From positions 29,437-93,436 of the forward strand of contig CAZVPI010000008.1 of NCBI GenBank assembly GCA_964628035.1: 64,000 nucleotides of DNA, in the 5' to 3' direction. The translations under genes and the position numbers were made by a program. Source of the DNA: an uncultured Clostridia bacterium (GTDB lineage Bacteria > Acidobacteriota > Aminicenantia > UBA2199). Each line of letters opens with the position of its first letter. Within the stretch, counting starts at the first letter, position 1. Positions 36,196 to 63,409 of this stretch are shown here, one piece after another. Below the pieces are notes generated by a model. The model saw nothing but the letters and a program-made list of their open reading frames with translations. It made no database searches and had not been told where the DNA came from.

Positions 36196-39100
36196 ATGAG
36201 CAAAAAACGCTTTCTCTTCACCGGTGGCGGCACCGGCGGCCACGTCTATCCCAATGTCGCCATCTACGAGGCGCTGAAGGAGAAGCATCCCGACGCCGAG
36301 TTCCTCTACGTGGGCACGCGCCGCGGCAGCGAGGCCTCGATCATCCCCTCCCTGCCCCAGCCCATGGAGTTCGTCGCCGTTCCCGCCCTGGGCCTGCCGC
36401 AGCGGCTGAAAAGCCCCAGGACGCTCCTGGCCGTCTTGGCCATCCTGTGGGGGGCGTTGCGCAGCCTGTTCATCCTGCGCCGCTTCAAGCCCGACGTGAT
36501 CATCGGCAGCGGCGGCTACGCGGCGGCGCCGGTGCTGCTGGCCGCGGCCCTGCTGCGCAGGCCGGTGTTCATCCACGAGCAGAACGCCGTGCCCGGGCGC
36601 ATGAACCTGTTCATCGCCCGCTTCGCCGCCAGGATCGGCGTCGCCTTCCCCTCGACGGCGGCGTTTTTCCCGGCGGCCAAGGTGGTCCAGGCCGGCTATC
36701 CGCTGCGCAAGTCGATCCGCGCCGCGGCCGCCAACGCCGCGGCGGCGCGGGAGAGGCTGGACATCCCGCCCAATAGCCGCGTCCTCTTCATCTGCAGCGG
36801 CAGCATGGGGGCGCGCACCATCAACCGCGCCGCGGTCGAGGCCATGCCGCGCCTGCTCTCCATCCCCAACCTCTTCGTCGTCATGTCGACAGGCAAGGCC
36901 TACGGCAAGGCCTACAAGGCCTACGACGACACGGTGAGCCGGCTGGAGCGCATGGGCTATCCCCCGCAGATCGAAGGCCGGCTGCTGGTGCAGGAGTATT
37001 TCGACCCGGTCGCCGACGTTTACGCCGTGTCCGACCTGGTGGTGGCCCGGGCCGGCGCCGGCACAGTCCAGGAGCTCGGGGCCCGCGGGCTGCCCGCCAT
37101 CCTGGTGCCCAAGATCGACCTGCCCGGAGACCACCAGGTGCTGAACGCCCGCGAGGTCGAGAAGGCCGGCGGCGCCCGCGTCCTCTATGAGGAGGCGCAG
37201 CCGGGTGGCAAGGCGGGGCGGATCGTCCTGTCCGCCGACTCCCTGGCCTCGGCGGTCGAGGAGCTGCTCGCCGCCCCCGAGCAGCTGGGAACCATGCGCC
37301 GCCACCAGCTGGCTGGCGAAAGGCGCGACAGCGCCGCCGTCATCCTGGAGGCGCTGGAGCGCATGGAAGCCGGCCGCGAGAAGGCCGAAACCGGCGAGAT
37401 CAAGGTCTTCTACCTGCAGGCGGTCGACGAGGAGAAGAACCTGGAGCTCCCCTTCCCCTCGACGGTGGTCGGCAACACGTTCCTGAGCGACGTGGTGCTG
37501 GAAAAGGCCGCCGCCCCCGTCCGCTTCACCATCAAGCTCCTGCCCGAGGGCGATGTTCCGGCCATGGTCCGCCTGCAGCGCGGCCGCGTGCTGCTCAACG
37601 GCCGCCCGGTCAGCGACTGGCTGCCCCTGCATTCCGGTGACCGGCTGGAGGTCGAGGATCACGCCTACGTTTTCAAGAGCTACCAGGAAAAGGTCGCCGA
37701 CAAGGACCGCAGCGTCTGCCCCAGCGCCGCCGCCCATCCCGGCTCGCCCCTGGTGGCGCGGCTGGCCGACTTCGGCCGCGCCATCGCCGCCGCAGCCCTG
37801 TTCGGCGCCGGCCGCGTGGTCGACGCCTTCACCGCCGCCCTGGCCGTCGTCGGCTTCCTGCGCCGGCTGGTCGGCGCCAACGCCATGAGCCGCGTCTTCA
37901 TGCCCATCTTCGCCCGCCTCTTCCAGCGCGCCTCGCGGGGCAAGGCCTGGGAGGCGGCCACGGCGCTGAGCGCCGGCACCGCCCTGCTGTCTCTGGCCAT
38001 CGCCGTGCTGGGCCTGCTGCTGGCGCCGGCGCTCGTGGGCCTGGCCTTCCCCGGCTTCGGCCCAGGCGGCACCGCCACCACGGCGGCCAACATGCTGCGC
38101 ACGCTGCTGCCCGCGGCCTTCCTGGGCACGCTGGCGGCGCTGGCCTCCGTCTACCTGCGCGCCTTCGGCAGGCGCCTCGTCACCGAGGCCTCGGGCCTGC
38201 TGTTCACCGTCGCGGCCATCGCCGGCATTTTCCTCTTTTACCACGGCAGCGGCCCCTATGCCCTGGCCTGGAGCATCCTCCTGGCCTCGCTGCTGCAGGT
38301 GGCCCTGCTGGCCCCCTACCTGGCCGCGACCCTGGCCCGGCCCGAGCTGGAGTTCGTCTTCCGGCCGTCGTTCCGCGCCTCGCGCCAGGTGAACCGCAAG
38401 TACGTCGCCCGCCTGGCGCCGGCCGGCCTGGGCGCCGCCCTGTCCCACGCGCCGCCGCTGATCGAGCGCTGCATCGGCTCCTGGCTGGCGGTCGGCTCGG
38501 TCTCGGCCCTCTATTTAGCCACCGAGCTGGCCCGCCTGCCCTTCACCCTGGTGGCGCGCGCCGCCCAGGGCCGGACGCTGCGCGACCGCCAGGCCCCGGT
38601 CATGCCCATGGACCGGGCGCGGCAGAGCCGGGTGCTGGCCGACGGCTTCCGCGACAACCTGTTCCTGCTGGCGCCGCTTTCGATCCTGCTGGTCGTGCTG
38701 GCCGGCCCCTTCGTCTCGCTGCTGCTCGCCCGCGGCCACTTCTCCGCCGCCGAGGCGGCGGCCACGGCCCGCGTCCTGCAGTTTTACGCCATCGGCCTCA
38801 GCGGCTGGGGGCTGCAGGCGCTGACCGCGCGCCTGTTCCACTCGCGCCTGGAGGAGCGCAGCGCCATCGTCACCGACCTGCTGCTGCTGGCCGTGCAGCT
38901 GCCGCTCACGGTCGCCCTGGCGCGCACCAGCCTGGGCGTCGCCGGCATCGCCCTGGCCGCCTCGCTGGCGGCGCTGGCGGTCGGCCTGGGCCGCGTCGCC
39001 CTGCTGCAGCTGCGCCTGCGCCGCGAAGGGGCGGCCCCGGCGGCGGGCGAATTCGCCTCCTCGACGCTGAAGACCCTCGGCGCCTCGCTGCTGATGGTCA

Positions 39101-39975
39101 TCGCCCTGGCCGAGGCCGAGTTCGTCTTCCGCCGCATCGAGTTCCGCGTGCCCTTCTGGCGCGACCTGATCCTCTGCGTGTCGCTGGCCTTCATGGGCAC
39201 GGCGGTCTATCTCCTGGCCTCGCTGCTGCTCAAGAACAAGGGCATCCTGATGTTCCGCAAGCGCCGGCGCGACCGGCGCAACGGCGCCCCGCTGTCGCTG
39301 CTGTCGCCGTTCCGCTTCCTGGACGTGGTCTCGGCCAACCCCGATTTCTACAAGGCCGAGTACCGCTACAAGACCGGCGTCTACCTGGCCAGCCCTTCCT
39401 GGGAGGTGCGCAACGTCGGCATCAAGCTGGCCGGGCTGTTCAAGGACCGCTCCAAGGTCCCGTACCTGACCGACCTGCTGAACAGCGGCCGGGCCAACGG
39501 TTTCATGCGCCGCAACGCCCTGCAGGCGCTGCGCAGCATCAACCCCTGGGGCCCGGAGCTGGAGGAACTGGCCCTGCGCCTGCTCCGCGACCGCTACTAC
39601 GAGGTGCGCAGCGCCGCCATCGACTGGCTGGGGCAGAACATCGGCGAGGCCGGATACGCCCGCCTGCGGCCGCTGCTGGAACGGCGCCTGGCGCGGGGCG
39701 GCATCCAGGAAAAGACCGCCTGCCTGCGCCTGGTCGCACGCAAGGGCGGTCTGGAGGACCTGCCGCGGCTGCGCCGGCTCTACCTGCACAGCAGCTCGCT
39801 GCTGCGCGAGGAGGTGCTGGAGGCCCTCTACTCCTTCCTGCGCCGCGGCCTGCTCGAGGCCGACGCCGCGCGCCGCGAGGCCCGGCAGGTGCTGGTCACC
39901 TCCGACCACCTGACCCCCGAGTTCCGCGTCAAGTCCATCCTGCTGCGCATCCTCCGCGAGAGTGAACGCCCATGA
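36196..39975 (+). CDS. Single 1259-aa polypeptide fusing MurG (GT28 lipid II glycosyltransferase), an FHA-like domain, MurJ/MviN (lipid II flippase) and C-terminal HEAT repeats
   Basis: Residues 1-395 are MurG (RFLFTGGGTGGHVYPNVAI is the G-loop, GSGGYAAAP). Residues 405-495 are FHA-like (VVGNTFLSDVVL...RVLLNGRPV...GDRLEV). Residues 515-1040 are MurJ (FGAGRVVDAFTAALAVVGFLRRLVGANAMSRVFMPIFARL, about 14 TM helices). Residues 1070-1259 are HEAT-like repeats (EVRSAAIDWLGQ, RRNALQALRSI). There is no stop or frame break at the junctions in the supplied track. Confidence 0.8.
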   Translation: MSKKRFLFTGGGTGGHVYPNVAIYEALKEKHPDAEFLYVGTRRGSEASIIPSLPQPMEFVAVPALGLPQRLKSPRTLLAVLAILWGALRSLFILRRFKPDVIIGSGGYAAAPVLLAAALLRRPVFIHEQNAVPGRMNLFIARFAARIGVAFPSTAAFFPAAKVVQAGYPLRKSIRAAAANAAAARERLDIPPNSRVLFICSGSMGARTINRAAVEAMPRLLSIPNLFVVMSTGKAYGKAYKAYDDTVSRLERMGYPPQIEGRLLVQEYFDPVADVYAVSDLVVARAGAGTVQELGARGLPAILVPKIDLPGDHQVLNAREVEKAGGARVLYEEAQPGGKAGRIVLSADSLASAVEELLAAPEQLGTMRRHQLAGERRDSAAVILEALERMEAGREKAETGEIKVFYLQAVDEEKNLELPFPSTVVGNTFLSDVVLEKAAAPVRFTIKLLPEGDVPAMVRLQRGRVLLNGRPVSDWLPLHSGDRLEVEDHAYVFKSYQEKVADKDRSVCPSAAAHPGSPLVARLADFGRAIAAAALFGAGRVVDAFTAALAVVGFLRRLVGANAMSRVFMPIFARLFQRASRGKAWEAATALSAGTALLSLAIAVLGLLLAPALVGLAFPGFGPGGTATTAANMLRTLLPAAFLGTLAALASVYLRAFGRRLVTEASGLLFTVAAIAGIFLFYHGSGPYALAWSILLASLLQVALLAPYLAATLARPELEFVFRPSFRASRQVNRKYVARLAPAGLGAALSHAPPLIERCIGSWLAVGSVSALYLATELARLPFTLVARAAQGRTLRDRQAPVMPMDRARQSRVLADGFRDNLFLLAPLSILLVVLAGPFVSLLLARGHFSAAEAAATARVLQFYAIGLSGWGLQALTARLFHSRLEERSAIVTDLLLLAVQLPLTVALARTSLGVAGIALAASLAALAVGLGRVALLQLRLRREGAAPAAGEFASSTLKTLGASLLMVIALAEAEFVFRRIEFRVPFWRDLILCVSLAFMGTAVYLLASLLLKNKGILMFRKRRRDRRNGAPLSLLSPFRFLDVVSANPDFYKAEYRYKTGVYLASPSWEVRNVGIKLAGLFKDRSKVPYLTDLLNSGRANGFMRRNALQALRSINPWGPELEELALRLLRDRYYEVRSAAIDWLGQNIGEAGYARLRPLLERRLARGGIQEKTACLRLVARKGGLEDLPRLRRLYLHSSSLLREEVLEALYSFLRRGLLEADAARREARQVLVTSDHLTPEFRVKSILLRILRESERP

Positions 39976-44130: not shown

Positions 44131-44907
44131 ATGCGAAATCCGTTCAAACGCACGCCCAAGCCTCCCAAGCCGCCCAGAACCGTCTCCGTCTTCCGCGAGT
44201 ATTTCGAGCTCATCGCCGAGACGCTGATCTACGTGTTCTTCGTCAACACCTTCCTGCTGCAGTCTTTCGTCATCCCCACCCCCTCGATGGAGAGCACGCT
44301 GCTGGTCGGCGACCACCTGCTGGTCAACAAGGTGGCCTATTCCAACTCCATCAGCAAGCTCGGCAACTTCCTGCTGCCGCAGGTGGAGATCCGGCGCGGC
44401 ATGATCGTCACCTTCAAGGCGCCGCCCGACATGGAGAAGGAGTACGTCAAGCGCGTGATCGGCATGCCCGGCGACCGGCTGCGCATCGAGGGCCGCAGGG
44501 TGTTCGTCAACGGCCGGCAGCTCCCCGAGACCTACACGCAGTACATCGGCAGCGACTCCGCGGCCGGGTTCCCTCCGCAGAACCACTACGACTGGTACTT
44601 CCAGTTCCCCGTCAAGTTGCGCACGACGCAGCGGAACCCCGACGGCAGCGTCGACTACGTCGTCCCCCAGCGCTATTACTTCTGCATGGGCGACAACCGC
44701 GACAACTCCTTCGACTCCCGCTACTGGGGGCCGGTCCCCTTCGACTATGTCGTAGGCAGGCCCTGGCGCATCTATTGGTCGTACGAGTCGAACACCGAGG
44801 AGTACCTGACGCCGGGGCTGATCTACAAAATCAAGGACATCGCCTTGACTGTCGTGAGGTTTTTCTCGCATACCAGGTGGGAGAGAACTATTAAGGCTAT
44901 TGAATAG
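44131..44907 (+). CDS. lepB: Signal peptidase I
   Basis: PTPSMESTLLVGDHLLVNK is the S26 Ser box. KRVIGMPGD is the Lys box. GDNRDNSFDSRYWG. Confidence 0.9.
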   Translation: MRNPFKRTPKPPKPPRTVSVFREYFELIAETLIYVFFVNTFLLQSFVIPTPSMESTLLVGDHLLVNKVAYSNSISKLGNFLLPQVEIRRGMIVTFKAPPDMEKEYVKRVIGMPGDRLRIEGRRVFVNGRQLPETYTQYIGSDSAAGFPPQNHYDWYFQFPVKLRTTQRNPDGSVDYVVPQRYYFCMGDNRDNSFDSRYWGPVPFDYVVGRPWRIYWSYESNTEEYLTPGLIYKIKDIALTVVRFFSHTRWERTIKAIE

Positions 44908-44924
44908 AAACGAGCTCAGGACAA

Positions 44925-44976
44925 TTCAGCAACTGGAAGGTACGACGGTCCATCGAGGCACCATGTACCAGGTACC
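44925..44976 (+). repeat. Family B dispersed repeat, copy 5
   Basis: TTCAGCAACTGGAAGGTACGACGGTCCATCGAGGCACCATGTACCAGGTACC. Confidence 0.6.
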
Positions 44977-45044
44977 CAATACCATGTTAATGACAGAGGA
45001 ATGGCCACGGCAGAGACATCGGTATTCAACGTGGAACATAGAAT

Positions 45045-46910
45045 GTGGTACTTGGAACATCTAACAGAGCGTTCAGTTCCTTCGAATGGCGCGAGAGCCG
45101 ATATAATTTGACAAAGCAGCAAGAAATAAGCCACTTTAAAGGGCACTGGCTGGTTAATTATCAGAAGGAACAATACACTTTTCAAGATATTTTAGTTATT
45201 TTGCTTGAAATTCAGGATTATTTTAACAAAAACGGCATTGAATTTGAGAATTTAAATGTAAAAATCAATAATAAAGGCGATAAAAGTCATTATTTTAAAG
45301 AAAACCAAACTGTTTACTTGAATATTGGCGATAATTTGGCTGAATTTGAGGAAATTGGCAAAAAACCGGAAGAAATCGCCAAGTTCAAGGCACTAGGGAA
45401 ACCTGTCAAGACAGTTTCGCTGCTGTTTCCCAGGCTGGAAAGCGATCCAAGATGGCGGAGCATGGGGATGCCGGCAGGGCAGCTCCTATTGTCGTCAAGC
45501 CTCAAAGCCCATGGATTCGAGCCGGTTCCCCTTGCACTGGCGATTCCGGGCAAAATAAGCCTTTCTGGGGCGTTTTCGGTGGATTTGGCCGGCTTCACCC
45601 TGTTCGAGGACCTTCTGCCCCTCCTGAGGCCGGTTTTGGCCGATTTTCGCCTATCCTACAGGGGAATCGTGGCCGCAGGCGGCCCCTTCCCCACCCTGGC
45701 CCCCATGGCGGCCATGTACCACCTGCCCGAGATCAATTTAATGGTCCGCGGCGAGGCCGAATTCGTCCTGCCCGGGATCCTCGCTGCCTTGAATAAGAGT
45801 GACGCCGAAGGGTTCTTCTCCCATGAAGGGGTCTTCTGGCATCACGACGGGGTGATCGCCATGGCCGGCTTCGACAAGGTGGTTAGGCCGGACGACCTGG
45901 CCTCCCTGCCAATTGACCTGGGCTTCCTGAAGCCCAACGACCTGGGCAACGGCCTGGAGATGAACTTCTCCCGCGGCTGCCGCAGGGGCTGCGTCTTCTG
46001 CTGCCGGGCCCAGGGGAGCCGCATGCGGAAGATGCCGCCGTGGAAGGCCGGAGAGCTGCTGTCGGCTTACGCCGGCAAGGTCGACCGGCTCGGCGCCGGC
46101 GGCGTGGCAACCAGGACGGTCAACATCAACGACGACGACATCCTGCAGGACCCCGCATACGCCCGGGATATCTTTGCGGCCATCAAGCGGCAGGGGCTGC
46201 GCATTTTCGGCATCCAGACCTCGACCGCATCGCTGGCCAAGGCCGACGGCTCGCCGAACGCCCAGGTTCTCGAGTTGGCCGCCGACTCCGACCTTTTCGT
46301 CAATAGCGCTCCCCTGCTATGGCTGGGGACCGACACGTTCCTGCAAGGCCGCGCCCAACGGCTGGGAAAGAAGCTTCCTCCGCCTGCTCAATTCAGGGAA
46401 CTGCTGGCGGAGATGGAGCGACGGCGGATCCGCCATTATCACTATTGGATCAGCAGCGACGGCGATTCCACCTGGCCCGAATTCGTCGGGGAATTGGAAT
46501 CGATCTTTTCACTTTTCAAGGATTTCCCGAACTTCGGCCTTCTGGCCCACGCCCCCTTCCTCGTCCCCTATCCTTCCAGCGTCCTGTTCTCCCAGCTGCC
46601 AGAAAGCGATCCACGCCTGAAGATCAAGCTGGACATGGAAGCCCCCGATCCGCGCTTCCGCTACAAGGTCGTCGAGCGCATGGAGGCGTCCTGGCCCCAG
46701 CTCAATGCCCTGCTGCGCAACGAAAAGGCCGGAGGCGAGAAGGGCTTTTTTGATTTCCTGAAAGAAAAGGATCTAACGGCCGCCGCCCAGTTAGGGTATC
46801 ATTTTTTAAAGCAGGAAATGTTTCAAGACCCAAGGCGGGAGCCAGAGTTGCAAATCGCCAAGGGGATGCTGGAAGAAGTAATCGAAGATTACCTTGATCG
46901 TGGCTCGTGA
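45045..46910 (+). CDS. Radical SAM protein (probable B12-binding-domain class) with an N-terminal about 110-aa region encoded by about 30% GC DNA
   Basis: CxxxCxxC radical-SAM cluster motif in NFSRGCRRGCVFCC. The preceding ...MVRGEAEFVLPGIL resembles a cobalamin-binding Rossmann segment. Nucleotides about 45100-45420 are strongly AT-rich yet keep an open frame encoding Lys/Asn/Glu-rich protein-like sequence. The exact start is uncertain. Confidence 0.7.
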   Translation: MVLGTSNRAFSSFEWRESRYNLTKQQEISHFKGHWLVNYQKEQYTFQDILVILLEIQDYFNKNGIEFENLNVKINNKGDKSHYFKENQTVYLNIGDNLAEFEEIGKKPEEIAKFKALGKPVKTVSLLFPRLESDPRWRSMGMPAGQLLLSSSLKAHGFEPVPLALAIPGKISLSGAFSVDLAGFTLFEDLLPLLRPVLADFRLSYRGIVAAGGPFPTLAPMAAMYHLPEINLMVRGEAEFVLPGILAALNKSDAEGFFSHEGVFWHHDGVIAMAGFDKVVRPDDLASLPIDLGFLKPNDLGNGLEMNFSRGCRRGCVFCCRAQGSRMRKMPPWKAGELLSAYAGKVDRLGAGGVATRTVNINDDDILQDPAYARDIFAAIKRQGLRIFGIQTSTASLAKADGSPNAQVLELAADSDLFVNSAPLLWLGTDTFLQGRAQRLGKKLPPPAQFRELLAEMERRRIRHYHYWISSDGDSTWPEFVGELESIFSLFKDFPNFGLLAHAPFLVPYPSSVLFSQLPESDPRLKIKLDMEAPDPRFRYKVVERMEASWPQLNALLRNEKAGGEKGFFDFLKEKDLTAAAQLGYHFLKQEMFQDPRREPELQIAKGMLEEVIEDYLDRGS

Positions 46911-47031
46911 TTCGTGATTGGAACAGCAATAGTCGGTCTACTTGTATCTCTCATCAACTATTGCCATGGCTCGCAAATTTTCCATGCATGCTTTTCTCCA
47001 ATCACTGATCACTCATTACTAATCACGGATC
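46905..47031. mobile_element. MITE/REP-like element, family 4 (GTGATTCGTGATTGG-type ends), between convergent genes
   Basis: The left end CTCGTGATTCGTGATTGGAACAGCAATAG overlaps the radical-SAM stop (TCG TGA). The right end CCAATCACTGATCACTCATTACTAATCACGGATC overlaps the methyltransferase stop (TAG on the minus strand). Confidence 0.55.
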
Positions 47032-48401
47032 CTGCGCATGAGATACAGCACCCTCTTCGACCCTGCTACGGCTTCCCTGCGCTCGATCGCAAAATGCTTC
47101 TGGAACTCGCGTTCGAACCCCTCTTGGGTGTAGCCCGGGAAGACGTCCTCGCGGGTGGCCAGCAGCAGCCGCACCTGCGAATCGTCCTTGGGGATGAACT
47201 CGACGACCAGGCTGCGGCACAGGCGGCTGAAGAAGAGGGCGATCCTGGCCAGGGGCAGGTTGTTGCTGATGGCGAGGTGGTGGACCAGCGCCAGCGCCAG
47301 GACCATGTCGACGGGGCCGCGCTCCAGCAGCGACATGCGCTCGGTGTTCTCCCAGCCGATGCCCGGGCTGGGGTTGGTCATGTCGCCGACCAGGGGCAGG
47401 AGGAACTTGTCCTTCTCCCTGCGGCACTGCAGGTAGTTCTTCTCCACGGCGGCGGCGTCGATGTCGATGGCCACGGTGCGGATGCCGCGCGAGGAGGCCA
47501 GGCGGCTGAAGACGCCGCGGTTGGCGCCGATGTCCCAGACGTCGCGCGGCCCGCCCTGCAGGCACCCGGCGACGAATTCCCTCTTGGCCGCGAACGCCTG
47601 GTCGGAATAATTCGTGCCGTCGTAATATTCGGCCCATTCGCTGCCGCCCGGGCGCCAGGAGAGGTTGCGCACCGCCCCCTCCAGGCTGTTCAGCAGGGCC
47701 AGCAGCGCGAAGCGGCTCATGGGCCGTGACTTGGCCTGGACCGGCTTGTCGGCGTAGCGCTTCTGGGCGCGGGCGTGGGCGTGGATGTGGGACAGGAGCG
47801 AGAATTTCAGCCGCGTGCGCCAGGGCAGCAGGGCCGAGGCCAGGTCGAGCGGCAGGCCGTCCAGGTGCAGCCGCGACAGCTGGTTCAGGCGCACGTCGCG
47901 CCAGGCCATGATCGCCAGCGGCGCCAGGAAGTGCTGGCAGAACTGGCGGTAGGCCACCCAGGGCCGCCCTTCCGGGCAGCGCTCGAAGGAGAGGGTGTCG
48001 ATCAGCTGCGGCCGGCCGTCGACGAACTGCACGTTGTAGGCGCTGGCGTCCTTGAGCGACAGGCCGTGCTCCAGCGCCAGCTTCTGGATTTCCAGCGTCA
48101 GCAGCGCCGCGTCCTTGAGCTGGCTGAAGCTCCACTCGTAGGGGTAGGAGATGAAGGGGATCTTTTGCGGGCGGATGACCTTGTAGGCAAGATCCGGGGC
48201 CGCCGGCTCCGCATCGCATTCCTCGTGCGGGGTCAGCCGGTTGTCGGCAGCGAGCTTGTCGTAAAGCCCGGAGGCGATCAGGAGGTCGTAATCCTGGCGG
48301 CAGACCCGGTTGATTTGGCGGTAGAGAATGCCGTCGCGCCGGAACAGGAACCCGCTGGGGTCGCGGAAGGAGCCGGAGACGGCCTCCCGGTCACTGGCCA
48401 T
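47019..48401 (-). CDS. Two-domain protein: N-terminal domain of unknown function plus C-terminal class I SAM-dependent methyltransferase
   Basis: VWDIGANRGVFS is the SAM-binding G-loop. An acidic residue follows in AIDID. The N-terminal about 250 aa has no recognised motif. Protein-like composition. Confidence 0.7.
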   Translation of the reverse strand: MASDREAVSGSFRDPSGFLFRRDGILYRQINRVCRQDYDLLIASGLYDKLAADNRLTPHEECDAEPAAPDLAYKVIRPQKIPFISYPYEWSFSQLKDAALLTLEIQKLALEHGLSLKDASAYNVQFVDGRPQLIDTLSFERCPEGRPWVAYRQFCQHFLAPLAIMAWRDVRLNQLSRLHLDGLPLDLASALLPWRTRLKFSLLSHIHAHARAQKRYADKPVQAKSRPMSRFALLALLNSLEGAVRNLSWRPGGSEWAEYYDGTNYSDQAFAAKREFVAGCLQGGPRDVWDIGANRGVFSRLASSRGIRTVAIDIDAAAVEKNYLQCRREKDKFLLPLVGDMTNPSPGIGWENTERMSLLERGPVDMVLALALVHHLAISNNLPLARIALFFSRLCRSLVVEFIPKDDSQVRLLLATREDVFPGYTQEGFEREFQKHFAIERREAVAGSKRVLYLMRRIRD

Positions 48402-48615
48402 CGGTTTTTTTCGAGAACAGCCCCGAGACGAATTTCCTTATCTTCTGCCAGTAGATCTTGACGGCGAAGGAGGCCGCGACCAGGGCGGCGACGATGACCT
48501 GGAAGACGTAGCTGCCCGTGCCCGGGTCGATGTAGCCGTAGGAGTAGATCGGGAAGAGCAGAGAAACAGCCAGGACCAGCAGCAGGGTCTCAAAAGGCCT
48601 CTTGAATGCCCTCAT
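48391..48615 (-). CDS. Small hypothetical membrane protein (74 aa, two TM helices) overlapping the methyltransferase start by 11 nt
   Basis: MRAFKRPFETLLLVLAVSLLFPIYSYGYIDPGTGSYVFQVIVAALVAASFAVKIYWQKIRKFV. Hydrophobic helices flank a YIDPGTGS turn. Confidence 0.4.
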   Translation of the reverse strand: MRAFKRPFETLLLVLAVSLLFPIYSYGYIDPGTGSYVFQVIVAALVAASFAVKIYWQKIRKFVSGLFSKKTDGQ

Positions 48616-50729: not shown

Positions 50730-52979
50730 CTATTTCTCAATTCTAGATTCTTCCAGCTCCGCATCAGATCCATACTTATACTGGTACGAATAATACCCCG
50801 ATCCAGCCTTGCGCGCGTTGAGCTTGTTCAGGATGACGCCGAAGAGCTTGATGCCGAACTTGGCGATCTCGTCGCGCGCCTTCTCGATGGTCTTGCGCGG
50901 CGTCTTGCCGCCCAGGGTGACCAGGATGATGCCGTCGCCCTGCTCGCCCAGCAGGATGGCGTCGGAGCCGGCCATCAGCGGCGGCGTGTCGATGAAGACG
51001 TGGTCGTAGCGGTTCTTGAGGCTCTCCAGCAGCTCCCTCATGGCCCTGGAGGTAAGGAGCTCGGCCGGGTTGGGCGGCACCGGGCCCGAGGGGATCAGCT
51101 GAAGGTTGGGCTCGCCCGGGCACTCGTGGACGATCTCGTCCAGGCTCGAGCGGCCGACCAGGTGCGAGGTCAGGCCCGAGGTGTTCTTCAGGCGGAAGAC
51201 CTTGTGCAGGCGCGGACGGCGCAGGTCGCAATCGACGGCCAGGACCTTGCGCCCCTGCTGGGCGAAGGCCACGGCCAAATTGATGGTCGTCACCGTCTTG
51301 CCCTCCTGGGGCAGCGGCGAGGTGGCGACCATGACCTTGGGCGGATGGTCGGGGGCCAGCAGCAGCGAGGTGCGGATGTAGCGGTAGTGCTCGGCGATCA
51401 TCGACTCGGGCTCGCGCAGGTTGATCAGCTCCACCGCCTTGGGCTTGCCGTCTTCTTCCTGCCTCTTGCGCTCGGAGTAATAGGGCTGGTACAAGTGGCG
51501 CTTGGCCGCCAGCGAGGTGTCGGGGACGAAGCCCAGGGCCGGCAGGCGCAACAGCTTTTCCACGTCCTCGGGCGACTTGACCGTGTTGTCCAGGTACTTG
51601 AGGGCGAAGACGACGAACACGCCCAGGCCCAGGCCCAGCATCAGGGCCATCAGCAGCGTGCGCCTGCGGTTGGGCGAGAAGGGGCCGGGCGGCACCTCGG
51701 CGCGGTCGACGATCTTGATGTTGGAGGTCTGCAGCCCCTCCAGGCGCGCCGAGAGCATCGACTCCTTCTCCTTGCGCGTCAGGTGGTCGAGGAGGCTGCG
51801 CATGTTCTCGACCTCGATCTTCAGGCTGTTGTAATAGATGGCGCTGGCGTTGCTGGAGACCACGCTCCCCTTCTGCTGGGTCAGCATCTCCTGCAGCGAG
51901 TTCTCCTTCTTGAGCGCCGCCTGGTACTCGGCCTCGGCCTGGTTCAGGACTTTGCGGGCGATGTCGGCCGTCTCCTCGGCGATGCGCTTCTGCAAGGCGT
52001 CCAGCTGGGTCTTCAGCCGCTGCATCTCGGGGTAGGAGTCCTGGAAGATCTGCGACTTGCGCTTGTACTCCGACTCCTTGCTCGAGTACTCCTGCTTCAG
52101 GCCGGTGATCAGGGCGCTGGCGCGCACCTCGGAGTAGTTGTCGTAGGATTTGCTGCGCAGCTCGCGGTAGAGAGACTCGCGGTTGATGCGCTCGATCTGG
52201 GCGGCGGTGAAGGCGGCGTTCAGGTCGGAGAGCTTCTGCACCACGGTGCTGTCCTCGCCGCGGATGTAATACAACTCCTTGCGCTTGCCGTATTCCTGCA
52301 GCTCCTGCTCCTTCTGCGCCAGCGAGCGGCGCATGTCCTCGATCTGGGCGGTGAGGAACTCGGAGGCCTGCTGCGACGACTCGGCCTTCATCTCCAGGTT
52401 GAACTCGACGAACTTGTCGAACAGGGTGTTGACGGCGAAGGCGGCCAGCTTGGGGTCTGGGGAAACGTAGGTCACCTCCAGCAGGCGGGTGTTCTCGACG
52501 TTGGCGACCTGCAGCGAGCCCAGGAACCCCGAGATGGCGCCGCTCAGGCGCAGTCGCGCCGCGGCCTCCGGATCTTCAGCCTCTTCTTTCCCCTGCTCCT
52601 TGTCCCCCTTCTTCCCGTCGGACTTGGGCAACGGGGCGAACTTCTCCAGCTCCTCGATCACCTTGCGGGCCAGGGAGCGGCTGGTCAGCACGCGGATCTG
52701 GGTGTTGAGGTACTCGTTGTTCCAGTCGTTGTCGTAGGCGTACCACTGGTTGAGCAGGTTCAACTGTCCTCGCCCCTCCTTCTCGATCAGCAGCGTGCCG
52801 CGCGCCTTGAACAGCGGCGTCTGCATCTGCACGCGCACCAGGGCGGCCAGCAGCACGGCGCCGGCGACGAACAGGATGAGCCTGTACTGGCTGCGTACCA
52901 GATCCCAGATCTCGTGAAAGTTGATCCCCTCCTCGGCCAGCAGGTCTTCGTTCGCCGCGATTCCGCTCATGGGGTTCAT
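50730..52979 (-). CDS. Polysaccharide co-polymerase / tyrosine autokinase (Wzc/EpsB-like), paralogue 1
   Basis: N-terminal Wzz/GumC domain with two TM segments. C-terminal Walker A in TSPLPQEGKTVTTINLA, Walker B VFIDTPPL, and DxD. About 60-65% identical to the ORF at 56725-58965. Confidence 0.85.
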   Translation of the reverse strand: MNPMSGIAANEDLLAEEGINFHEIWDLVRSQYRLILFVAGAVLLAALVRVQMQTPLFKARGTLLIEKEGRGQLNLLNQWYAYDNDWNNEYLNTQIRVLTSRSLARKVIEELEKFAPLPKSDGKKGDKEQGKEEAEDPEAAARLRLSGAISGFLGSLQVANVENTRLLEVTYVSPDPKLAAFAVNTLFDKFVEFNLEMKAESSQQASEFLTAQIEDMRRSLAQKEQELQEYGKRKELYYIRGEDSTVVQKLSDLNAAFTAAQIERINRESLYRELRSKSYDNYSEVRASALITGLKQEYSSKESEYKRKSQIFQDSYPEMQRLKTQLDALQKRIAEETADIARKVLNQAEAEYQAALKKENSLQEMLTQQKGSVVSSNASAIYYNSLKIEVENMRSLLDHLTRKEKESMLSARLEGLQTSNIKIVDRAEVPPGPFSPNRRRTLLMALMLGLGLGVFVVFALKYLDNTVKSPEDVEKLLRLPALGFVPDTSLAAKRHLYQPYYSERKRQEEDGKPKAVELINLREPESMIAEHYRYIRTSLLLAPDHPPKVMVATSPLPQEGKTVTTINLAVAFAQQGRKVLAVDCDLRRPRLHKVFRLKNTSGLTSHLVGRSSLDEIVHECPGEPNLQLIPSGPVPPNPAELLTSRAMRELLESLKNRYDHVFIDTPPLMAGSDAILLGEQGDGIILVTLGGKTPRKTIEKARDEIAKFGIKLFGVILNKLNARKAGSGYYSYQYKYGSDAELEESRIEK

Positions 52980-56724: not shown

Positions 56725-58965
56725 CTAGACTCTCCCCTCTTCCTCGGAGCGGTATTCTCCGTATTTGTAATGGTAGGGCGAATAGGCGTAGGCGAGGCGG
56801 CGCAGGTTGACCTTGTTCAGGATGAGACCGTACAGCTTGATGCTGAACCTGGCGATCTCGTCCCTGGCCTTCTGCACCACCTTGCGCGGCGTCTTGCCGC
56901 CCCAGGCCACCAGCAGCAGCCCGTCGGCATGCTCGCCCAGCAGGATGGCGTCCTGGATGCCCATCAGCGGCGGCGCGTCGATGAAGATGAAGTCGAAGTG
57001 CTGGCGCAGCGCCGCCATCATTTCGCGCATGCCCTTGGAGATGATCAGTTCCACCGGGTTGGGCGGGATGGGGCCCGAGGGCAGCACGTGCAGGTTGGGC
57101 TCGCCCGGGTAGCGGTGGATGATCTCCTCGATGCGGCCGCGGCCGGTGAGGAACGAGGAGATGCCGGCGGTGTTCTTGATGCGGAAGATCTTGTGCACGC
57201 GGGGGCGGCGCAGATCGGCGTCAAGGATCAGCACTTTTCTGCCCAGCTGGGCGAAGGCCACGGCCAGGTTGATGACGGTGACGGTCTTGCCCTCCTGGGG
57301 CAGGGCCGAGGTGGCCACGAAGACCTTGGGCGGCTGGTCGGGGTTGGAGAGGAGGAGCGAGGTGCGGATGTTGCGGTAGTGCTCGGCGAAGGTCGACTCG
57401 GGGTCGCGGAGGTTGACCAGTTCGATGGCCTTGATCTTCTCCTCGTTCTGCTGCTTCTTGCGGTCGGAGTAATAATGATTGTAGTAGGACTGGGCGGCCC
57501 GGACGCCGACGGCCGGGATGTAGCCCAGCGCCGGGAGCTTCAGGATTTTTTCCACCTCTTCGGGCGACTTGATGGTGTTGTCGAGGTAGTTCAGGGCGAA
57601 GATGAGGAAGATGCCGCCGCCGATGCCCAGCATCAGCGCCATCAGGATCGTGCGCTGCTTGTTGGGCGAGAAGGGGCGCTGGGGCACGCGGGCGCGGTCG
57701 ACGACCTTGATGTTGGAGGTCTCGGTCCCTTCCAGGCGCGAGGTGAGCATCGACTCCTTCTGCTTGCTGATCAGGAAGTTGAGCAGCGTGCGCATGTTCT
57801 CGACCTCGATCTTCAGGCTGTTGTAGTAGATGGCGTCGGCGTTGCTGGAGACCACGCTCCCCTTCTGCTGGTCGAGCATCTCCTGCAGGTAGTTCTCCTT
57901 CTTGAGCGCCGCCTGGTACTCGGCCTCGGCCTGGCCCAGCACCTTGCGGGCGATATCGTTCGTCTCCTCGCCGATGCGCTTCTGCAGGCCGTCCAGCTGC
58001 GAGCGCAGGCGCTGCATCTCGGGATAGGAGTCCTGGAAAATCTGCGACTTGCGCTTGTACTCCGACTCCTTGGCCGAGTACTCGGTCTTCAGGCTGGTGA
58101 TCAGCGGATTGTTGCGAACTTCCGAATAGCTGTCGAAGGTCTTGCCCTTCAGCTCCCGGTAGGTGGCCTCGTGGTTCACCCGCTCGATCTGCGCCTGGGT
58201 GAAGGCGGCGTTCAGGTCCGACAGCTTCTGCACCACCGTGCTGTCGCTGCCGCGGATGTAATACAGCTCCTTGCGCTTGCCGTACTCCTGCAGCTCCTGC
58301 TCCTTCTGGGCCAGCGAGCGGCGCATCTCCTCGATCTGGGCGGTCAGGAACTCGGCCGCCTGCTTGGTCGATTCGGCCTTCATCTCCAGGCTGAACTCGA
58401 TGAACTTGTCGAACAGGGTGTTGACCGAATGGGCGGCCAGCTTGGGGTCGGAGGAGACGTAGCTCACCTCCAGCAGGCGGGTGTCGGGGATCTGGCTGAC
58501 CCCCAGGCCGCCCAGGAAGGACATCGACTTGGCGTCGGCTATGAGTTCCTTGCGCGTCTCGGGGTCGACCTCCTTCTCCTTGCCGCCGAACAGGGGCTTC
58601 CTGGCCTTGGGTGCCCTGGCCTCGTTGCCGGGCAGGCGCTCCAGCTCCTCGACCACCTTCTGCGCCAGCGACTGGCTGGTCAGGATGCGGATCTGGGTGT
58701 TGATGTATTCGCCGCGGAAGTCGCTGTCGAAGGCCCAGTACTGGTTCAGCACGTTCAGGTTGCTGCGCCCCTCTTTTTCGATCAAAAGCGTCCCCTGGGC
58801 CCTGTACATGGGGGTTTGCAGCTGGACGCGTATCAGGGCCGCCAGCAGGACGAAGCCGGCGAAATAGTAGATGATCATGCGCCGCTTCTTGATGAGCTCC
58901 CAGATCTCATGGAAATGGATCCCTTCTTCCTGCAGCAGGTCCAGGCTTTCGTCGGCTGTGGCCAT
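56725..58965 (-). CDS. Polysaccharide co-polymerase / tyrosine autokinase (Wzc/EpsB-like), paralogue 2
   Basis: The start at MATADESLDLLQEEGIHFHEIW is an internal ATG of the track ORF; the upstream 36 codons are Arg/Ser-rich and not protein-like. Walker A TSALPQEGKTVTVINLA, Walker B IFIDAPPL. Confidence 0.85.
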   Translation of the reverse strand: MATADESLDLLQEEGIHFHEIWELIKKRRMIIYYFAGFVLLAALIRVQLQTPMYRAQGTLLIEKEGRSNLNVLNQYWAFDSDFRGEYINTQIRILTSQSLAQKVVEELERLPGNEARAPKARKPLFGGKEKEVDPETRKELIADAKSMSFLGGLGVSQIPDTRLLEVSYVSSDPKLAAHSVNTLFDKFIEFSLEMKAESTKQAAEFLTAQIEEMRRSLAQKEQELQEYGKRKELYYIRGSDSTVVQKLSDLNAAFTQAQIERVNHEATYRELKGKTFDSYSEVRNNPLITSLKTEYSAKESEYKRKSQIFQDSYPEMQRLRSQLDGLQKRIGEETNDIARKVLGQAEAEYQAALKKENYLQEMLDQQKGSVVSSNADAIYYNSLKIEVENMRTLLNFLISKQKESMLTSRLEGTETSNIKVVDRARVPQRPFSPNKQRTILMALMLGIGGGIFLIFALNYLDNTIKSPEEVEKILKLPALGYIPAVGVRAAQSYYNHYYSDRKKQQNEEKIKAIELVNLRDPESTFAEHYRNIRTSLLLSNPDQPPKVFVATSALPQEGKTVTVINLAVAFAQLGRKVLILDADLRRPRVHKIFRIKNTAGISSFLTGRGRIEEIIHRYPGEPNLHVLPSGPIPPNPVELIISKGMREMMAALRQHFDFIFIDAPPLMGIQDAILLGEHADGLLLVAWGGKTPRKVVQKARDEIARFSIKLYGLILNKVNLRRLAYAYSPYHYKYGEYRSEEEGRV

Positions 58966-58981
58966 GGTGCTCACGCTTCTC

Positions 58982-59845
58982 CTAGAGGATGCTCTCGGGG
59001 ACGAACACGACGTCGAAGGCCTGCAGGGCGAAGTCCTTCTGCCCGCCGCCCAGGATCTCCTTGACGTCGACATAGATTTTCTTTTCCCTGCCGTCCTCGG
59101 TGCGGGTGACCAGCACCTTGCCGCGGCGGGCGCGGTCGGTGAAGCCGCCGGCCTGGGCGATGGCGCGTAGCAGGGTCACCTCGTCGGTCCCTTTCTTCAT
59201 GCGCACGGCGCCCGGGTTCTTGACCTGGCCGAAGACATAGATGTCGAGGAACTGGCTCCCGGGCACGTTGATGATGTCGCCCGGGAAGATCGGGATGTTG
59301 TACCTGGGATTGGCCTTGACCAGCAGCTCGTCGAGCTTGATGGTCAGCGACAGGCCGGGGCCGCTCTTGAACTGGCGGAAGACGACCACCGAGTCGCTGG
59401 CCTGCTCGCTCAGGCCGCCGGCCATGGAGATGACCTGCAGCAGCGACTGGCGGCCGATCAGGTCGTGCTGGCCCGGGTTCTTGACCGCGCCCATGATCGA
59501 TATCTTCTTGCTCTGGAACTCCTTGATGAAGATCGTCACCTGGGCGTTTTTCAGGTAGTTCTTCTCCAGCCTGGTCGCAAGTTCCTTCTCGAGTTGCAAC
59601 CGGTTCAATCCCTCGGCCCGGATCTCACCCAGCAGCGGCAGGCTGATCATGCCGTTTTCAGAGACGCGGACCGTAATGTTCAACTCAGGGACTTCGAACA
59701 CGGAGATCTGCAACAGGTCCTTGGCGCCTATTTGATACTCGTAGGTTTGATCAGGAACGGAGCCAGCTTGCGCATGGATAAGACGTGGAAGCGGCAGTGA
59801 TAGGGATAGCAGAAAGATGAGACCCAGAGTTTTTTTGCTATTCAT
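58982..59845 (-). CDS. Polysaccharide export outer-membrane lipoprotein Wza (Poly_export + SLBB domains)
   Basis: Start MNSKKTLGLIFLLSLSL (signal). IGAKDLLQISVFEVPELN is the PES motif. Two SLBB-like repeats (...PGDIINVP...). Confidence 0.85.
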   Translation of the reverse strand: MNSKKTLGLIFLLSLSLPLPRLIHAQAGSVPDQTYEYQIGAKDLLQISVFEVPELNITVRVSENGMISLPLLGEIRAEGLNRLQLEKELATRLEKNYLKNAQVTIFIKEFQSKKISIMGAVKNPGQHDLIGRQSLLQVISMAGGLSEQASDSVVVFRQFKSGPGLSLTIKLDELLVKANPRYNIPIFPGDIINVPGSQFLDIYVFGQVKNPGAVRMKKGTDEVTLLRAIAQAGGFTDRARRGKVLVTRTEDGREKKIYVDVKEILGGGQKDFALQAFDVVFVPESIL

Positions 59846-59987
59846 GATTGGCTCCAAAAGAGAAGTGAAGAAGGATGGTGAAAGTGATTGTTCAGGAAAA
59901 ATTCCCAATGTCCTTTTTTAAAAGAGCTCGTCATCGGCTCGCTACTACCACGGTCACTACCTCTACCCCTCATAGCTCTTTTCATGT

Positions 59988-61208
59988 CTAAAACCCATAC
60001 TGCAAAAACGCTCCCCAGTAGCTCCTGGCATAATCGAGCTCCAGCACGTCCGATGTCAATCGGTATATGTTGTACGAAAAGCCCAGAGACGTTTTGCCGA
60101 AGAACGGGATGGCCAAATAATACTGCTGCTGGCGGATGCGGTCGCTGCGCTGTAACTGCAGGTCGATGAACGAGCGGTACCTCAGCCTGCCGTCGCGATG
60201 GTTGCCCCCGGCCTTCAGGAAGCGGGTCAGGTAGACCTCGGCCCCGCCACCGAAGGAGTTGTCATCATAAAATACATCGCTGGAATAATAAGAAAACCGT
60301 GTGTCGATCGCATAGAAAACATTCAATCGCACGCGGTCGGCCAAGGTGAGTCGCACGTCTCCCCTGCCATTGGCCCGCTGGGTGGTTTGGTACAAGGGGT
60401 TGCTCGGGTCGAAGCGCCTGACGCCGATCTGGAAGCTCCCCTGCAGCGAGCCCTTCTCGGGGAACTGCACGCCCAATCCAATCTGTTGTGCTTTGGTATT
60501 CCTTTCCAGGCTTTGCTCGAACTTGTAGTCGGTCCGCTCGTAATGGGCGTAGATGATCGTGCTGGTGAATACCGGCTTGTTCAATCTGAAGCCAAACGTA
60601 TTCTCCTCGTGGTTCAATCGTTCGGACAGATCGTAAGTGCCTAAATAGGGATCTTCATCATATTCAAGCTTGTTGAACGAAGCATAAGCGGTCACGAACA
60701 GGCTGTATGGCCTGCCTATATCGACCTCTCCCGACCATGCGCCGTCGCGATAATGGTAGGGGCTGCTGAACTCTAGCCGGGGCCTTTGGTAGAGATCGTT
60801 CTGCGCGAACCCCGCCTTGACATTGAACGGCCCGGCGTAACTGTGCGCCGCGGCCTTGAACTGGTTGCTCCAGGTCCTGAATTGCTCATTCTCCAAGTAG
60901 AACGAGTAGTATGGCAGATCTTCAACCTGCAGGATAAGCCTGTTGGCAACAATAGCCGATGCTCTTAGCCCCACTCCTATATCGCCCGTCCAGTCCGGGT
61001 ATTCCTCTTCCTGATACGTATAGATGCTGCTGGTATAGCCGACATTATCCAGCATGAGGAGCGGAGTAAGATATACGAACCCCAGCTTCAGTCTGGACTC
61101 ATTCAGGATTTTTTCTTTGACTTTAAAGAAATCATCCGAGCCAATACTCAGTGTCAGTGTCAGCGTTAGTGTTAGGAAGAGAAGAAAACGGCGGAGACGA
61201 TCACTCAT
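59988..61208 (-). CDS. Putative outer-membrane beta-barrel protein; signal peptide contains an (LT)n repeat
   Basis: MSDRLRRFLLFLTLTLTLTLSIGS. Alternating amphipathic strands rich in Y/F/G. C-terminal ...FLQYGF ends in an aromatic, typical of OMPs. Confidence 0.6.
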   Translation of the reverse strand: MSDRLRRFLLFLTLTLTLTLSIGSDDFFKVKEKILNESRLKLGFVYLTPLLMLDNVGYTSSIYTYQEEEYPDWTGDIGVGLRASAIVANRLILQVEDLPYYSFYLENEQFRTWSNQFKAAAHSYAGPFNVKAGFAQNDLYQRPRLEFSSPYHYRDGAWSGEVDIGRPYSLFVTAYASFNKLEYDEDPYLGTYDLSERLNHEENTFGFRLNKPVFTSTIIYAHYERTDYKFEQSLERNTKAQQIGLGVQFPEKGSLQGSFQIGVRRFDPSNPLYQTTQRANGRGDVRLTLADRVRLNVFYAIDTRFSYYSSDVFYDDNSFGGGAEVYLTRFLKAGGNHRDGRLRYRSFIDLQLQRSDRIRQQQYYLAIPFFGKTSLGFSYNIYRLTSDVLELDYARSYWGAFLQYGF

Positions 61209-61317
61209 TGGGGATCACCGGAAGAATTCCCCCAAAAGCCCTTTCCAACCGATGACACCCAAAAACAATGTATGAATTTTAGGAAAGGATGATCCTCATG
61301 CGGGACATCTGCGCTGG

Positions 61318-61614
61318 TCATGATGATGACTTGGCCAGGCCGCGCAGCATCTTGGATATTTCGTCGCACTCTCTTCGCAACCCCTTATTTTGGGAAGCCT
61401 CGATATAGCCAAGATCCCGTCCCAATAACAAGTGATATTGTAACTCACCTGCCGACCCATTGGCAATACCCACGATCTGCGCAGAACTCGTTGTAAAAGA
61501 CAAAATTGCCCCTCTATTCCCAGGAAATCAGTGAATTTTTGGCTCCCTCAGGAGCTCTTTCAAAATACCGGCTATGTTCTCTTCGCTGACACGAACACGA
61601 AGAGCTAGCAGCTC
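61318..61614 (-). pseudogene. Frameshifted four-helix-bundle protein gene (TIGR02436; 23S rRNA intervening-sequence / Avd-like family)
   Basis: The C-terminal half is intact from a TTG (SFTTSSAQIVGIANGSAGELQYHLLLGRDLGYIEAS...ISKMLRGLAKS). The expected N-terminal half appears in another frame upstream (...RVRVSEENIAGILKELLREPKIH*) before a TGA. Confidence 0.5.
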
Positions 61615-62127
61615 TTATTTACCTGTCGGCGAAGTCTCTTTCTCAATGATCTTTACAAAGCCATACGTAGCCCCGGCGGTTACGCCACCGATAAGGGCCC
61701 AGCCGCAGGGGGTGAGGAAGAAGCACTTGGGCGACTTGCAGCGCAGCTGGTAGCCGGGGACCTCGTCGGCCTTCTTGGGCAGGGTGAGGCAGGCCAGCTG
61801 CTTCTTGGGCTCGATCTTGATCAGCACGTCGACGTTGTAGTCCTTGCCGTCGTGCTGGATGCCGATGGCATAGGTGCCGGGGATGATGTTCTCGATCTTG
61901 TACGTGCCCTTCTTGTCCGATTTCTCCGACTGGTAGGTCCTCTCGGTGGTGGTCTCGCGGATCAGGACAACTGCGTTGGGAAGGGGCTTCTTGCCGTCAT
62001 CGGAATAGACAAAACCATGGAGCTTGCCGACCTTGGCTTCCTGTGCCGGAATCACAATGGGGAATAATGTGATCATGAACGCGGAAAGGGCCACCAGACT
62101 TATGTTTTTCCTCAGTAGACCTTTCAT
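61615..62127 (-). CDS. Exported carboxypeptidase-regulatory-like (CarbopepD_reg) domain protein
   Basis: AGGAGG RBS. Signal MKGLLRKNISLVALSAFMITLFPIVIPA. GFVYSDDGKKPLPNAVVLI and GTYAIGIQHDGKDYN are typical of Ig-like CarbopepD_reg beta-sandwiches. Confidence 0.7.
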   Translation of the reverse strand: MKGLLRKNISLVALSAFMITLFPIVIPAQEAKVGKLHGFVYSDDGKKPLPNAVVLIRETTTERTYQSEKSDKKGTYKIENIIPGTYAIGIQHDGKDYNVDVLIKIEPKKQLACLTLPKKADEVPGYQLRCKSPKCFFLTPCGWALIGGVTAGATYGFVKIIEKETSPTGK

Positions 62128-63344: not shown

Positions 63345-63409
63345 GTTCTGAAGGATTGTAACTGATTTTTGGGTGGGGGTAAAGGGATATACAGGCTATA
63401 GCGGATTAT

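Follow-up and report, generated by a model that had tools for sequence, protein, structure and literature searches.

The target-recognition domains of HsdS are exchangeable variable domains within a mosaic gene, and the gene clusters for O-antigen and capsule polysaccharides are low-GC, recombination-prone and compositionally deviant loci. Rhs genes combine a conserved core with exchangeable, compositionally deviant C-terminal tips (PMC2935791), and flagellin combines conserved ends with a hypervariable middle (PMC7018530). The mosaic gene described here lies in a 64,000-nucleotide stretch of contig CAZVPI010000008.1 from an uncultured Aminicenantia bacterium (the whole stretch is called the window below) and encodes a putative cobalamin-type radical S-adenosylmethionine (radical-SAM) enzyme. 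About 270 nucleotides near the 5' end of this gene are AT-rich, and its remainder is GC-rich. The explanation that we consider probable is that the AT-rich DNA encodes a native N-terminal domain (N-domain), that it represents the AT-type allele of a recombining cassette, and that its AT-richness is kept at the nucleotide level.

The gene resembles the Rhs, flagellin and HsdS mosaics in that conserved flanks appear to serve as recombination handles, the segment between them differs wholly between near-identical strains, and this segment has a history of its own (synonymous divergence, dS, far above that of the flanks) with a GC content that deviates below that of the core. Unlike in those systems, the exchangeable module is the N-domain of a cytoplasmic-type cofactor enzyme and not a toxin tip, a surface antigen or a DNA-recognition domain. 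Its replacement takes in the upstream spacer, its ratio of nonsynonymous to synonymous divergence (dN/dS) is below 1, and only one of its allele classes is AT-rich, stably so while being fixed in a whole high-GC clade. The likeness to the low-GC polysaccharide clusters lies in the surroundings, as the gene stands among Wzy_C, Wzz/tyrosine-kinase, CpsB, Poly_export and GT4 genes, and in the combination of strain-level allelic replacement with low GC. In contrast to those clusters, the deviation is limited to about 270 nucleotides within one gene, and the neighbouring polysaccharide genes have 62-70% GC.

The protein itself can be compared with the solved class B radical-SAM enzymes CysS (9n1d), TokK (7kdx), MgmA (9ccb), TsrM (6wte) and OxsB (5ul2), which were the Foldseek matches of its model (E values of 1e-15 to 1e-12 over 507-623 columns). 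It shares with them a Rossmann-type domain, a radical-SAM barrel with the CxxxCxxC motif and a C-terminal helical domain, and OxsB also carries an extra N-terminal domain, of unknown role. It differs from them in its low sequence identity (12-16%), in its subthreshold Pfam and NCBIfam scores and in having an N-domain without a detectable fold relative.

The AT-rich segment and the protein it encodes

The GC content of the segment (45135-45404) is 0.307 and falls to 0.265 in its core (45150-45360), compared with 0.61 in the remainder of the gene (45405-46910) and 0.64 in the whole window. Measured over 100 nucleotides, the GC content is 0.22-0.32 across 45100-45350 and goes back up to 0.57-0.75 beyond; in steps of 30 nucleotides it is 0.17-0.37 over 45150-45359. 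Third codon positions have a GC content (GC3) of 0.23-0.30 over codons 31-105, as opposed to 0.8-1.0 over codons 180-420. At the 3' end of the segment the GC content climbs from 0.40 to 0.57 across the boundary, which is followed by the conserved sequence LLFPRLxSDPRW. The deepest trough of the 64 kb on a 150-nucleotide scale is located here (0.22 at 45154, z = -4.8). Six other troughs have minima of 0.37-0.39, every one at least 0.373. Where they were placed, for example upstream of yitT, they are intergenic, and the intergenic spacers of the window have about 37-50% GC.

These sliding-window and codon-usage values bear out the first-pass annotation, made from the sequence of the window, in its description of a radical-SAM open reading frame (ORF) with an AT-rich 5' part in frame with a GC-rich body. 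Its figure of 68% GC for the body was somewhat too high, the recomputed value being 61-63%. The rest of the window, which it had called uniformly high-GC, contains the intergenic troughs and ends in about 4 kb of roughly 50% GC. This end of the window (59700-64000) is markedly GC-poorer (0.44-0.57) than the remainder, and a 406-aa ORF within it (59988-61208, minus strand) has no Pfam match. The 3' end of the radical-SAM gene (46725-46907, about 60 codons) also shows a drop, to a GC content of 0.49 and a GC3 of about 0.55, and the drop is shared by the two groups of related loci compared below.

The AT-rich stretch is coding. The frame of the ORF alone is open across it, the five other frames being filled with stops, and only 5 of 100,000 shuffled versions of 45135-45404 stay open in frame (probability 5e-5). 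Among relatives, the dN/dS of the N-domain is 0.13-0.30, indicating purifying selection; values as high as 0.6-0.8 are limited to pairs that are very close and show few changes. In the AlphaFold2 model, for which 82 homologues were used (mean predicted local distance difference test score, pLDDT, 89.5; predicted template modelling score, pTM, 0.88), residues 31-120 fold as a compact beta-alpha-beta4 domain with a pLDDT of about 95. The suggestion that the AT-rich part forms an open, protein-like frame is thus upheld.

The true start of the protein is probably the TTG at 45108 rather than the GTG at 45045, which would place residues 1-26 of the GTG-started ORF outside the protein. These residues are disordered in the model (pLDDT below 50), homologues start 4-10 residues ahead of a conserved F-K-G-x-W-L-V motif, and a public gene call (P0132) begins at this TTG. 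A six-codon mini-ORF at 45086-45106 (ATG GCG CGA GAG CCG ATA TAA) is separated from the candidate TTG by a single base. Its stop codon is overlapped by the TATAAT that the first-pass annotation had put at about 45100 and that is present at 45102-45107.

The superposition found by Foldseek, together with the invariant cysteines of the CxxxCxxC motif, argues that the protein is a divergent member of the class B radical-SAM enzymes that carries an additional N-terminal domain, and cobalamin binding is predicted from the model. The sequence-based scores stay below their cut-offs: 19.4 bits against 29.5 for Pfam PF04055 (Radical_SAM), 13.5 against 32.1 for PF02310 (B12-binding) and 25 against 750 for ApyD, the best NCBIfam match. 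The sole match in a sequence profile search of the Protein Data Bank (PDB) was TokK (E = 0.002). The shortfall against the Radical_SAM model is attributed to a family too divergent for the sequence model, for which the fold evidence compensates. A Pfam YfjL_C match on the N-domain (23.4 bits against a cut-off of 28, 46 residues) was taken as noise. As a guess, the N-domain could be a module for substrate or partner specificity.

The distribution of the N-domain shows that it is native to this family. All 120 homologues among the matches listed, mostly annotated as Aminicenantes, include it (90-96% query coverage). An exhaustive profile search of 1.84 billion representative proteins with the N-domain returned ten sequences, nine of which are N-termini of the same radical-SAM family; the remaining one, a 1152-aa protein with 15 short matching stretches, is probably an artefact of low complexity. 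The N-domain is thus present in every member and, in this search, confined to the N-terminus of the family, which contradicts the earlier proposal of a foreign N-terminal domain.

For the comparison of base composition, 119 fetched loci were used. The AT-type clade has a body identity to the query of at least 56% and is represented here by the window and 12 further loci with distinct DNA; the sister group is represented by 13 loci with a body identity of 0.53-0.59. The order ATPase-lepB-rSAM-yitT-TPR-Wzy_C (rSAM being the radical-SAM gene) is common to the clade and sister loci, and this shared synteny indicates that they are orthologous. Among the 119 loci, the GC dip is restricted to the AT-type clade. 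Its N-domains have a GC content of 0.28-0.38 and a GC3 of 0.26-0.44, and its bodies 0.58-0.65 and 0.68-0.82. All 13 clade loci have the end of the trough at one shared alignment position, residues 115-125 or so, where the N-domain joins the Rossmann domain. In the sister group the N-domain resembles the body (N-domain GC 0.50-0.65), and the trough is absent from all 13 loci. The AT-type signature, a fraction of Phe, Tyr, Met, Ile, Asn and Lys of 0.42-0.56 in the N-domain versus about 0.2 in the body, is carried by about 30 species-level protein clusters. In low-GC Aminicenantes, the whole radical-SAM gene has 25-35% GC. The AT-type N-domain is therefore old, fixed and vertically inherited in the clade of the window.

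Exchange of the spacer and the N-domain

The clearest view of the exchange comes from three loci, L127, L128 and L095, whose radical-SAM proteins are P0030, P0041 and P0038, respectively. Between L128 and L095, the identity is 99-100% over lepB and most of the radical-SAM body, and only 11-64% from the 3' end of lepB to the junction between the N-domain and the Rossmann domain. L127 is about 88-90% identical to both of them in the flanks and cannot be aligned with them within the spacer and the N-domain. The identity among the three recovers at the position equivalent to 45381-45420, that is, at the compositional boundary. The pairs L075/L076 and L003/L005 show the same pattern of flanks and segment in a milder form.

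The synonymous divergence of the N-domain exceeds that of the body in every pair of loci listed: dS is 1.55 in the N-domain and 0.11 in the body for L128/L095, 0.80 and 0.14 for L075/L076, 0.77 and 0.24 for L003/L005, 1.45 and 0.46 for L001/L002, and 0.99 and 0.37 for L058/L122. The N-domain dS is well above the body dS within the AT-type clade as well. P0030 has an AT-type N-domain, but its body, which differs by 12.6% from that of the GC-type P0041, nests among GC-type bodies. The 90% protein cluster of P0030 is mixed, containing the AT-type proteins P0030, P0129 and P0131 (four assemblies) and the GC-type P0130. The break in identity between L128 and L095, the excess of N-domain dS and the mixed cluster together show that the spacer and the N-domain are exchanged as a unit between conserved flanks and that alternative alleles coexist in one species-level group.

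By combining these observations, it is possible to propose a course of events. The AT-rich stretch encodes a native, folded N-domain of an uncharacterised cobalamin-type radical-SAM enzyme in an envelope-polysaccharide locus of an Aminicenantes bacterium, with no foreign graft. The fast-evolving N-domain and the lepB-rSAM spacer form a separate recombination cassette, with its edges at the 3' end of lepB and at the conserved start of the B12-binding domain. The AT-type lineage probably had a single origin, in the stock that also gave rise to the GC-rich N-domains of the sister group, with residues replaced one position at a time (R to K, S to N, L or V to I). At least once, homologous recombination has moved the AT-type into a sister-group species, where it stands beside GC-type and intermediate alleles.

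A diversity-generating retroelement was considered as the source of the variability and rejected, given the 11-64% identity, the elevated dS and the lack of a template repeat in a short-repeat scan of 44700-45700.

A second variable region of the protein is the linker at residues 328-358. It carries insertions of 24-50 aa in P0019 and P0025, its identity between L128 and L095 falls to 13-73%, and its GC3 in the sister group is only 0.41-0.48.

Origin and maintenance of the AT-rich state

Clade N-domains differ from those of the sister group by a mean amino-acid distance of 0.73, from those of the low-GC lineages by 0.79 and from those of the other high-GC lineages by 0.82. When compositional convergence is damped by Dayhoff-6 recoding, the distances are 0.49, 0.60 and 0.62. 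Neighbour-joining trees unite the AT-type N-domains in a single group, which adjoins an 'intermediate' allele of the sister group (P0038/P0047). The N-domains of high-GC hosts form a graded series in GC content, from the GC-type (0.55) through the intermediate (0.50) and the P0031-type (0.38) to the core AT-type (0.28-0.36). The distances, the tree and the graded series make it more likely that the AT-type N-domain evolved within the family than that it was imported from a distant lineage of low GC content.

The AT-richness extends to synonymous sites. When identical amino acids are compared within the same genes, pooled over the 13 clade loci, AAA makes up 77% of the Lys codons in the N-domain and 35% in the body, CAA 63% and 23% of the Gln codons, and TTT 56% and 25% of the Phe codons; ATC makes up 23% and 73% of the Ile codons. 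The clade N-domain thus takes A/T-ending codons and the body G/C-ending ones, and in the sister group the two regions agree. Positions that hold Lys, Asn or Ile in the clade hold Arg, Ser, Leu or Pro in the N-domains of the sister group (for example, NFSRNIRRSRFF versus NFNKNGKKNYFF), so that the design of the protein is kept and the letters are changed. At matched column conservation, the clade GC3 is 0.30-0.42 in the N-domain versus 0.68-0.74 in the body, and in the sister group the two are equal; low conservation therefore does not explain the AT-richness. A general rule by which variable positions are AT-rich was rejected, as the correlation within the body, although real, is weak (rho 0.2; GC3 from 0.68 to 0.81) and cannot yield a GC3 of 0.3.

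The synonymous divergence of the clade N-domains is at or beyond saturation, yet their GC3 stays at 0.3-0.4 throughout. The inverted synonymous codons and the persistence of this state through saturating divergence point to a force at the level of the DNA or RNA, be it selection or a local bias, and not to protein needs or to a short time for amelioration. Either such a force maintains the AT state, or the alleles are continually resupplied from an AT-rich pool. One candidate mechanism is that the cassette, being highly divergent, is exempt from GC-biased conversion. A promoter scan yielded no evidence of function: there are five sigma-70-like sites against 1.2 expected, all within the AT-rich DNA, and composition alone would give that number. 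A replication origin or unwinding element was dropped as well, since the skew swings of the window track gene orientation and the stretch is coding.

The explanation by a native, recombining cassette has to be weighed against several others. The most radical of them is that the segment is an artefact, either an assembly chimera or an untranslated 5' leader with the protein starting at M140 or M142. The metagenomic origin of the DNA, the ATG codons at residues 140 and 142 and a public gene call of 480 aa that starts at M142 (P0134) would suit it. However, the exact 621-aa protein was found on at least 24 contigs from several independent samples (41 index blocks read), among them a 329-kb ENA contig and Logan assemblies of three unrelated runs, and JGI contigs carry it too; the DNA is identical in contigs from ENA, JGI and the three Logan runs, and the N-domain has the same composition in the DNA of the contigs carrying the protein. 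The first beta-strand of the Rossmann domain (residues 123-131) lies upstream of M140, and the open frame, the dN/dS and the high pLDDT of the N-domain speak for translation. An artefact is thus hardly credible, and the chimeric assembly that the first-pass annotation had allowed for is refuted. A recent horizontal acquisition, by which a resident high-GC radical-SAM gene gained a 5' part in frame from a donor of low GC content, is suggested by the sharp compositional contrast and the low-GC codon usage, and the same segment is known to be replaced by recombination in the family. It is nevertheless very unlikely. The segment and its boundary recur at the same syntenic locus in all 13 clade loci and in about 30 clusters, the synonymous divergence among clade N-domains is saturated, and the domain goes back to the ancestor of the family, outside which the profile search did not locate it. 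The N-domains of the low-GC lineages are farther away than the GC-rich ones of the sister group (0.60 versus 0.49 after recoding), which tells against a low-GC donor. The scan of 44700-45700 for insertion signatures detected only chance-level short repeats inside the AT-rich DNA and none bracketing it, no mobility genes flank the segment, and it has no phage match. Of the first-pass interpretation, therefore, the in-frame, coding, AT-rich mosaic and the replacement of the segment by recombination within the family stand, and the recent, foreign, low-GC donor does not for this genome. A cause at the protein level, in which the N-domain needs its Lys-, Asn-, Ile-, Phe- and Tyr-rich composition and the AT-richness is a by-product, agrees with the amino-acid signature described above, but the synonymous sites are inverted as well (GC3 0.3 versus 0.8) and the sister group does the same job with Arg, Ser, Leu and Pro at equivalent positions. 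We give this cause very little weight too.

The alternative of most substance is an ancient import followed by stasis. The AT-type allele would have come from an unsampled low-GC close relative by homologous replacement in the ancestor of the clade, and it was perhaps topped up by exchange with an AT-rich pool. The cassette demonstrably moves between lineages, many Aminicenantes lineages with 25-35% GC carry the gene, and the N-domain dS is 2.7-3 times the body dS between members of the AT-type clade, which implies deeper or separate allele histories. On the other side, the comparison turned up no AT-type-like N-domain in a low-GC genome (the smallest amino-acid distance is 0.63, versus 0.49 to the sister group), the graded series from 0.55 to 0.28-0.36 within high-GC hosts looks like in-situ drift, and the composition is unchanged after saturating divergence, with no strong excess of changes from weak (A or T) to strong (G or C) bases. 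We regard such an import as unlikely, though considerably less so than a recent one.

Several points weigh against the cassette explanation or limit its reach, one of them being the improbable but conceivable origin of the AT-type allele in such an unsampled relative. The trees are neighbour-joining trees on 88 columns, in which deep placements such as those of P0029 and P0031 are weak. The near balance of polarised changes at third positions in the N-domain (117 weak-to-strong versus 92 strong-to-weak; 214 versus 529 in the body) speaks for the cassette explanation; both sets of counts are affected by the unreliability of parsimony polarisation at saturated divergence. Taken alone, the N-domain finds no fold relative in the PDB (best E = 1.3), and its dN/dS below 1 lacks the classical mark of diversifying (positive) selection. 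Synonymous sites show no excess of conservation (0.553 observed and 0.468 expected in the N-domain, 0.582 and 0.433 in the body), and an Rfam scan of 44500-47300 gave no match at E values up to 1. There is thus no sign of a specific embedded element of DNA or RNA, and it is the composition that persists and not a particular sequence.

Within the cassette explanation, it can be proposed only tentatively, with the chances well against it, that the AT island is a selected nucleotide-level feature that travels with the cassette and that the coexistence of AT-type, intermediate and GC-type alleles is a balanced polymorphism. Candidate functions of such an island are a platform for nucleoid-protein binding or silencing, an internal promoter, and a tract of rare codons or unstructured mRNA, in effect a 'brake' of about 90 codons, that tunes expression or cotranslational cofactor loading. 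If this were true, the polymorphism would determine how much of an envelope-polysaccharide-modifying radical-SAM enzyme is expressed or what its specificity is, for example under pressure from phages or grazers.

These observations show that even a striking GC break within a gene need not signal recent foreign DNA; here it marks an old domain cassette that evolves separately. The locus also offers a natural experiment, in which orthologous domains of the same gene, at the same locus and in high-GC hosts, have 30% or 60% GC and the 30% state is stable across a clade. Such stability is hard to explain by mutation bias and time alone, and thus bears on the debate over selection, biased gene conversion and mutation. 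The enzyme would represent an uncharacterised class B radical-SAM subfamily from an exopolysaccharide locus of an uncultured phylum, with a family-specific, strain-variable N-domain as its candidate specificity module.

Features and gene neighbourhood of the locus

The features discussed above are located as follows.

Table 1. Position of the radical-SAM gene, its parts and its upstream flank in the window
Feature	Position	Strand	Description
lepB (signal peptidase I)	44131..44907	+	Pfam PF10502, E 3e-44; conserved left flank of the cassette
lepB-rSAM spacer	44908..45107	+	GC 0.49; replaced together with the N-domain in relatives
Radical-SAM gene, compositionally mosaic	45045..46910	+	621 aa from GTG; only long ORF there
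Likely start codon TTG	45108..45110	+	protein would begin MTKQQEISHFKG...
AT-type N-terminal domain segment	45135..45404	+	aa 31-120, beta-alpha-beta4; GC 0.307, GC3 ~0.3
Compositional boundary and right-hand recombination junction	45381..45420	+	aa 113-125, start of the first strand of the B12-binding domain
Rossmann-like (cobalamin-binding type) domain	45411..45830	+	aa ~123-262; AlphaFold2 secondary structure; aligned to B12 domains of TokK, CysS and TsrM
CxxxCxxC [4Fe-4S]/SAM motif	45978..46001	+	C312, C316, C319; invariant in 82 aligned homologues
Second variable linker	46026..46118	+	aa 328-358, just after CxxxCxxC; GC 0.73 in the window

Judged by its neighbours, the radical-SAM gene appears to sit in an envelope-polysaccharide locus. 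The neighbourhood contains a GT4 gene, a MurG-MurJ fusion, two Wzz/GNVR tyrosine-kinase proteins, Wzy_C, CpsB, Poly_export, lepB and yitT, with lepB upstream of the radical-SAM gene in the clade and sister loci. From this neighbourhood one might guess that the enzyme modifies a surface polymer. The radical-SAM gene has no match among the PADLOC defence models.

The MurG-MurJ fusion is a 1259-aa ORF (36196-39975, plus strand) that joins MurG (GT28 N- and C-terminal parts), a MurJ flippase and HEAT-repeat regions. The two Wzz/GNVR/P-loop tyrosine-kinase-type proteins (50730-52979 and 56725-59073, minus strand) are paralogous and stand on both sides of the TPR-Wzy_C-CpsB genes. A two-gene module at 47019-48615 (minus strand), between the radical-SAM gene and yitT, encodes a 460-aa weakly methyltransferase-like protein and a 74-aa membrane protein. 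Its counterpart in L002 and L126 lies between the ATPase gene and lepB (71% identity), and most clade loci lack the module at the position that it has in the window. The module looks as if it relocates, and it has a weak match to PADLOC mad2 (E = 6.5e-5). Small genes for '23S rRNA intervening sequence protein' (PF05635) occur in L122, L125 and L126 at varying sites around the radical-SAM gene and yitT, and are not present in the locus of the window. Finally, the metagenome-assembled genome GCA_040961665.1 contains two contigs (L120 and L121) with the same ATPase-to-Wzy_C synteny and differing radical-SAM proteins (P0016 and P0019); this bin probably mixes two related genomes.

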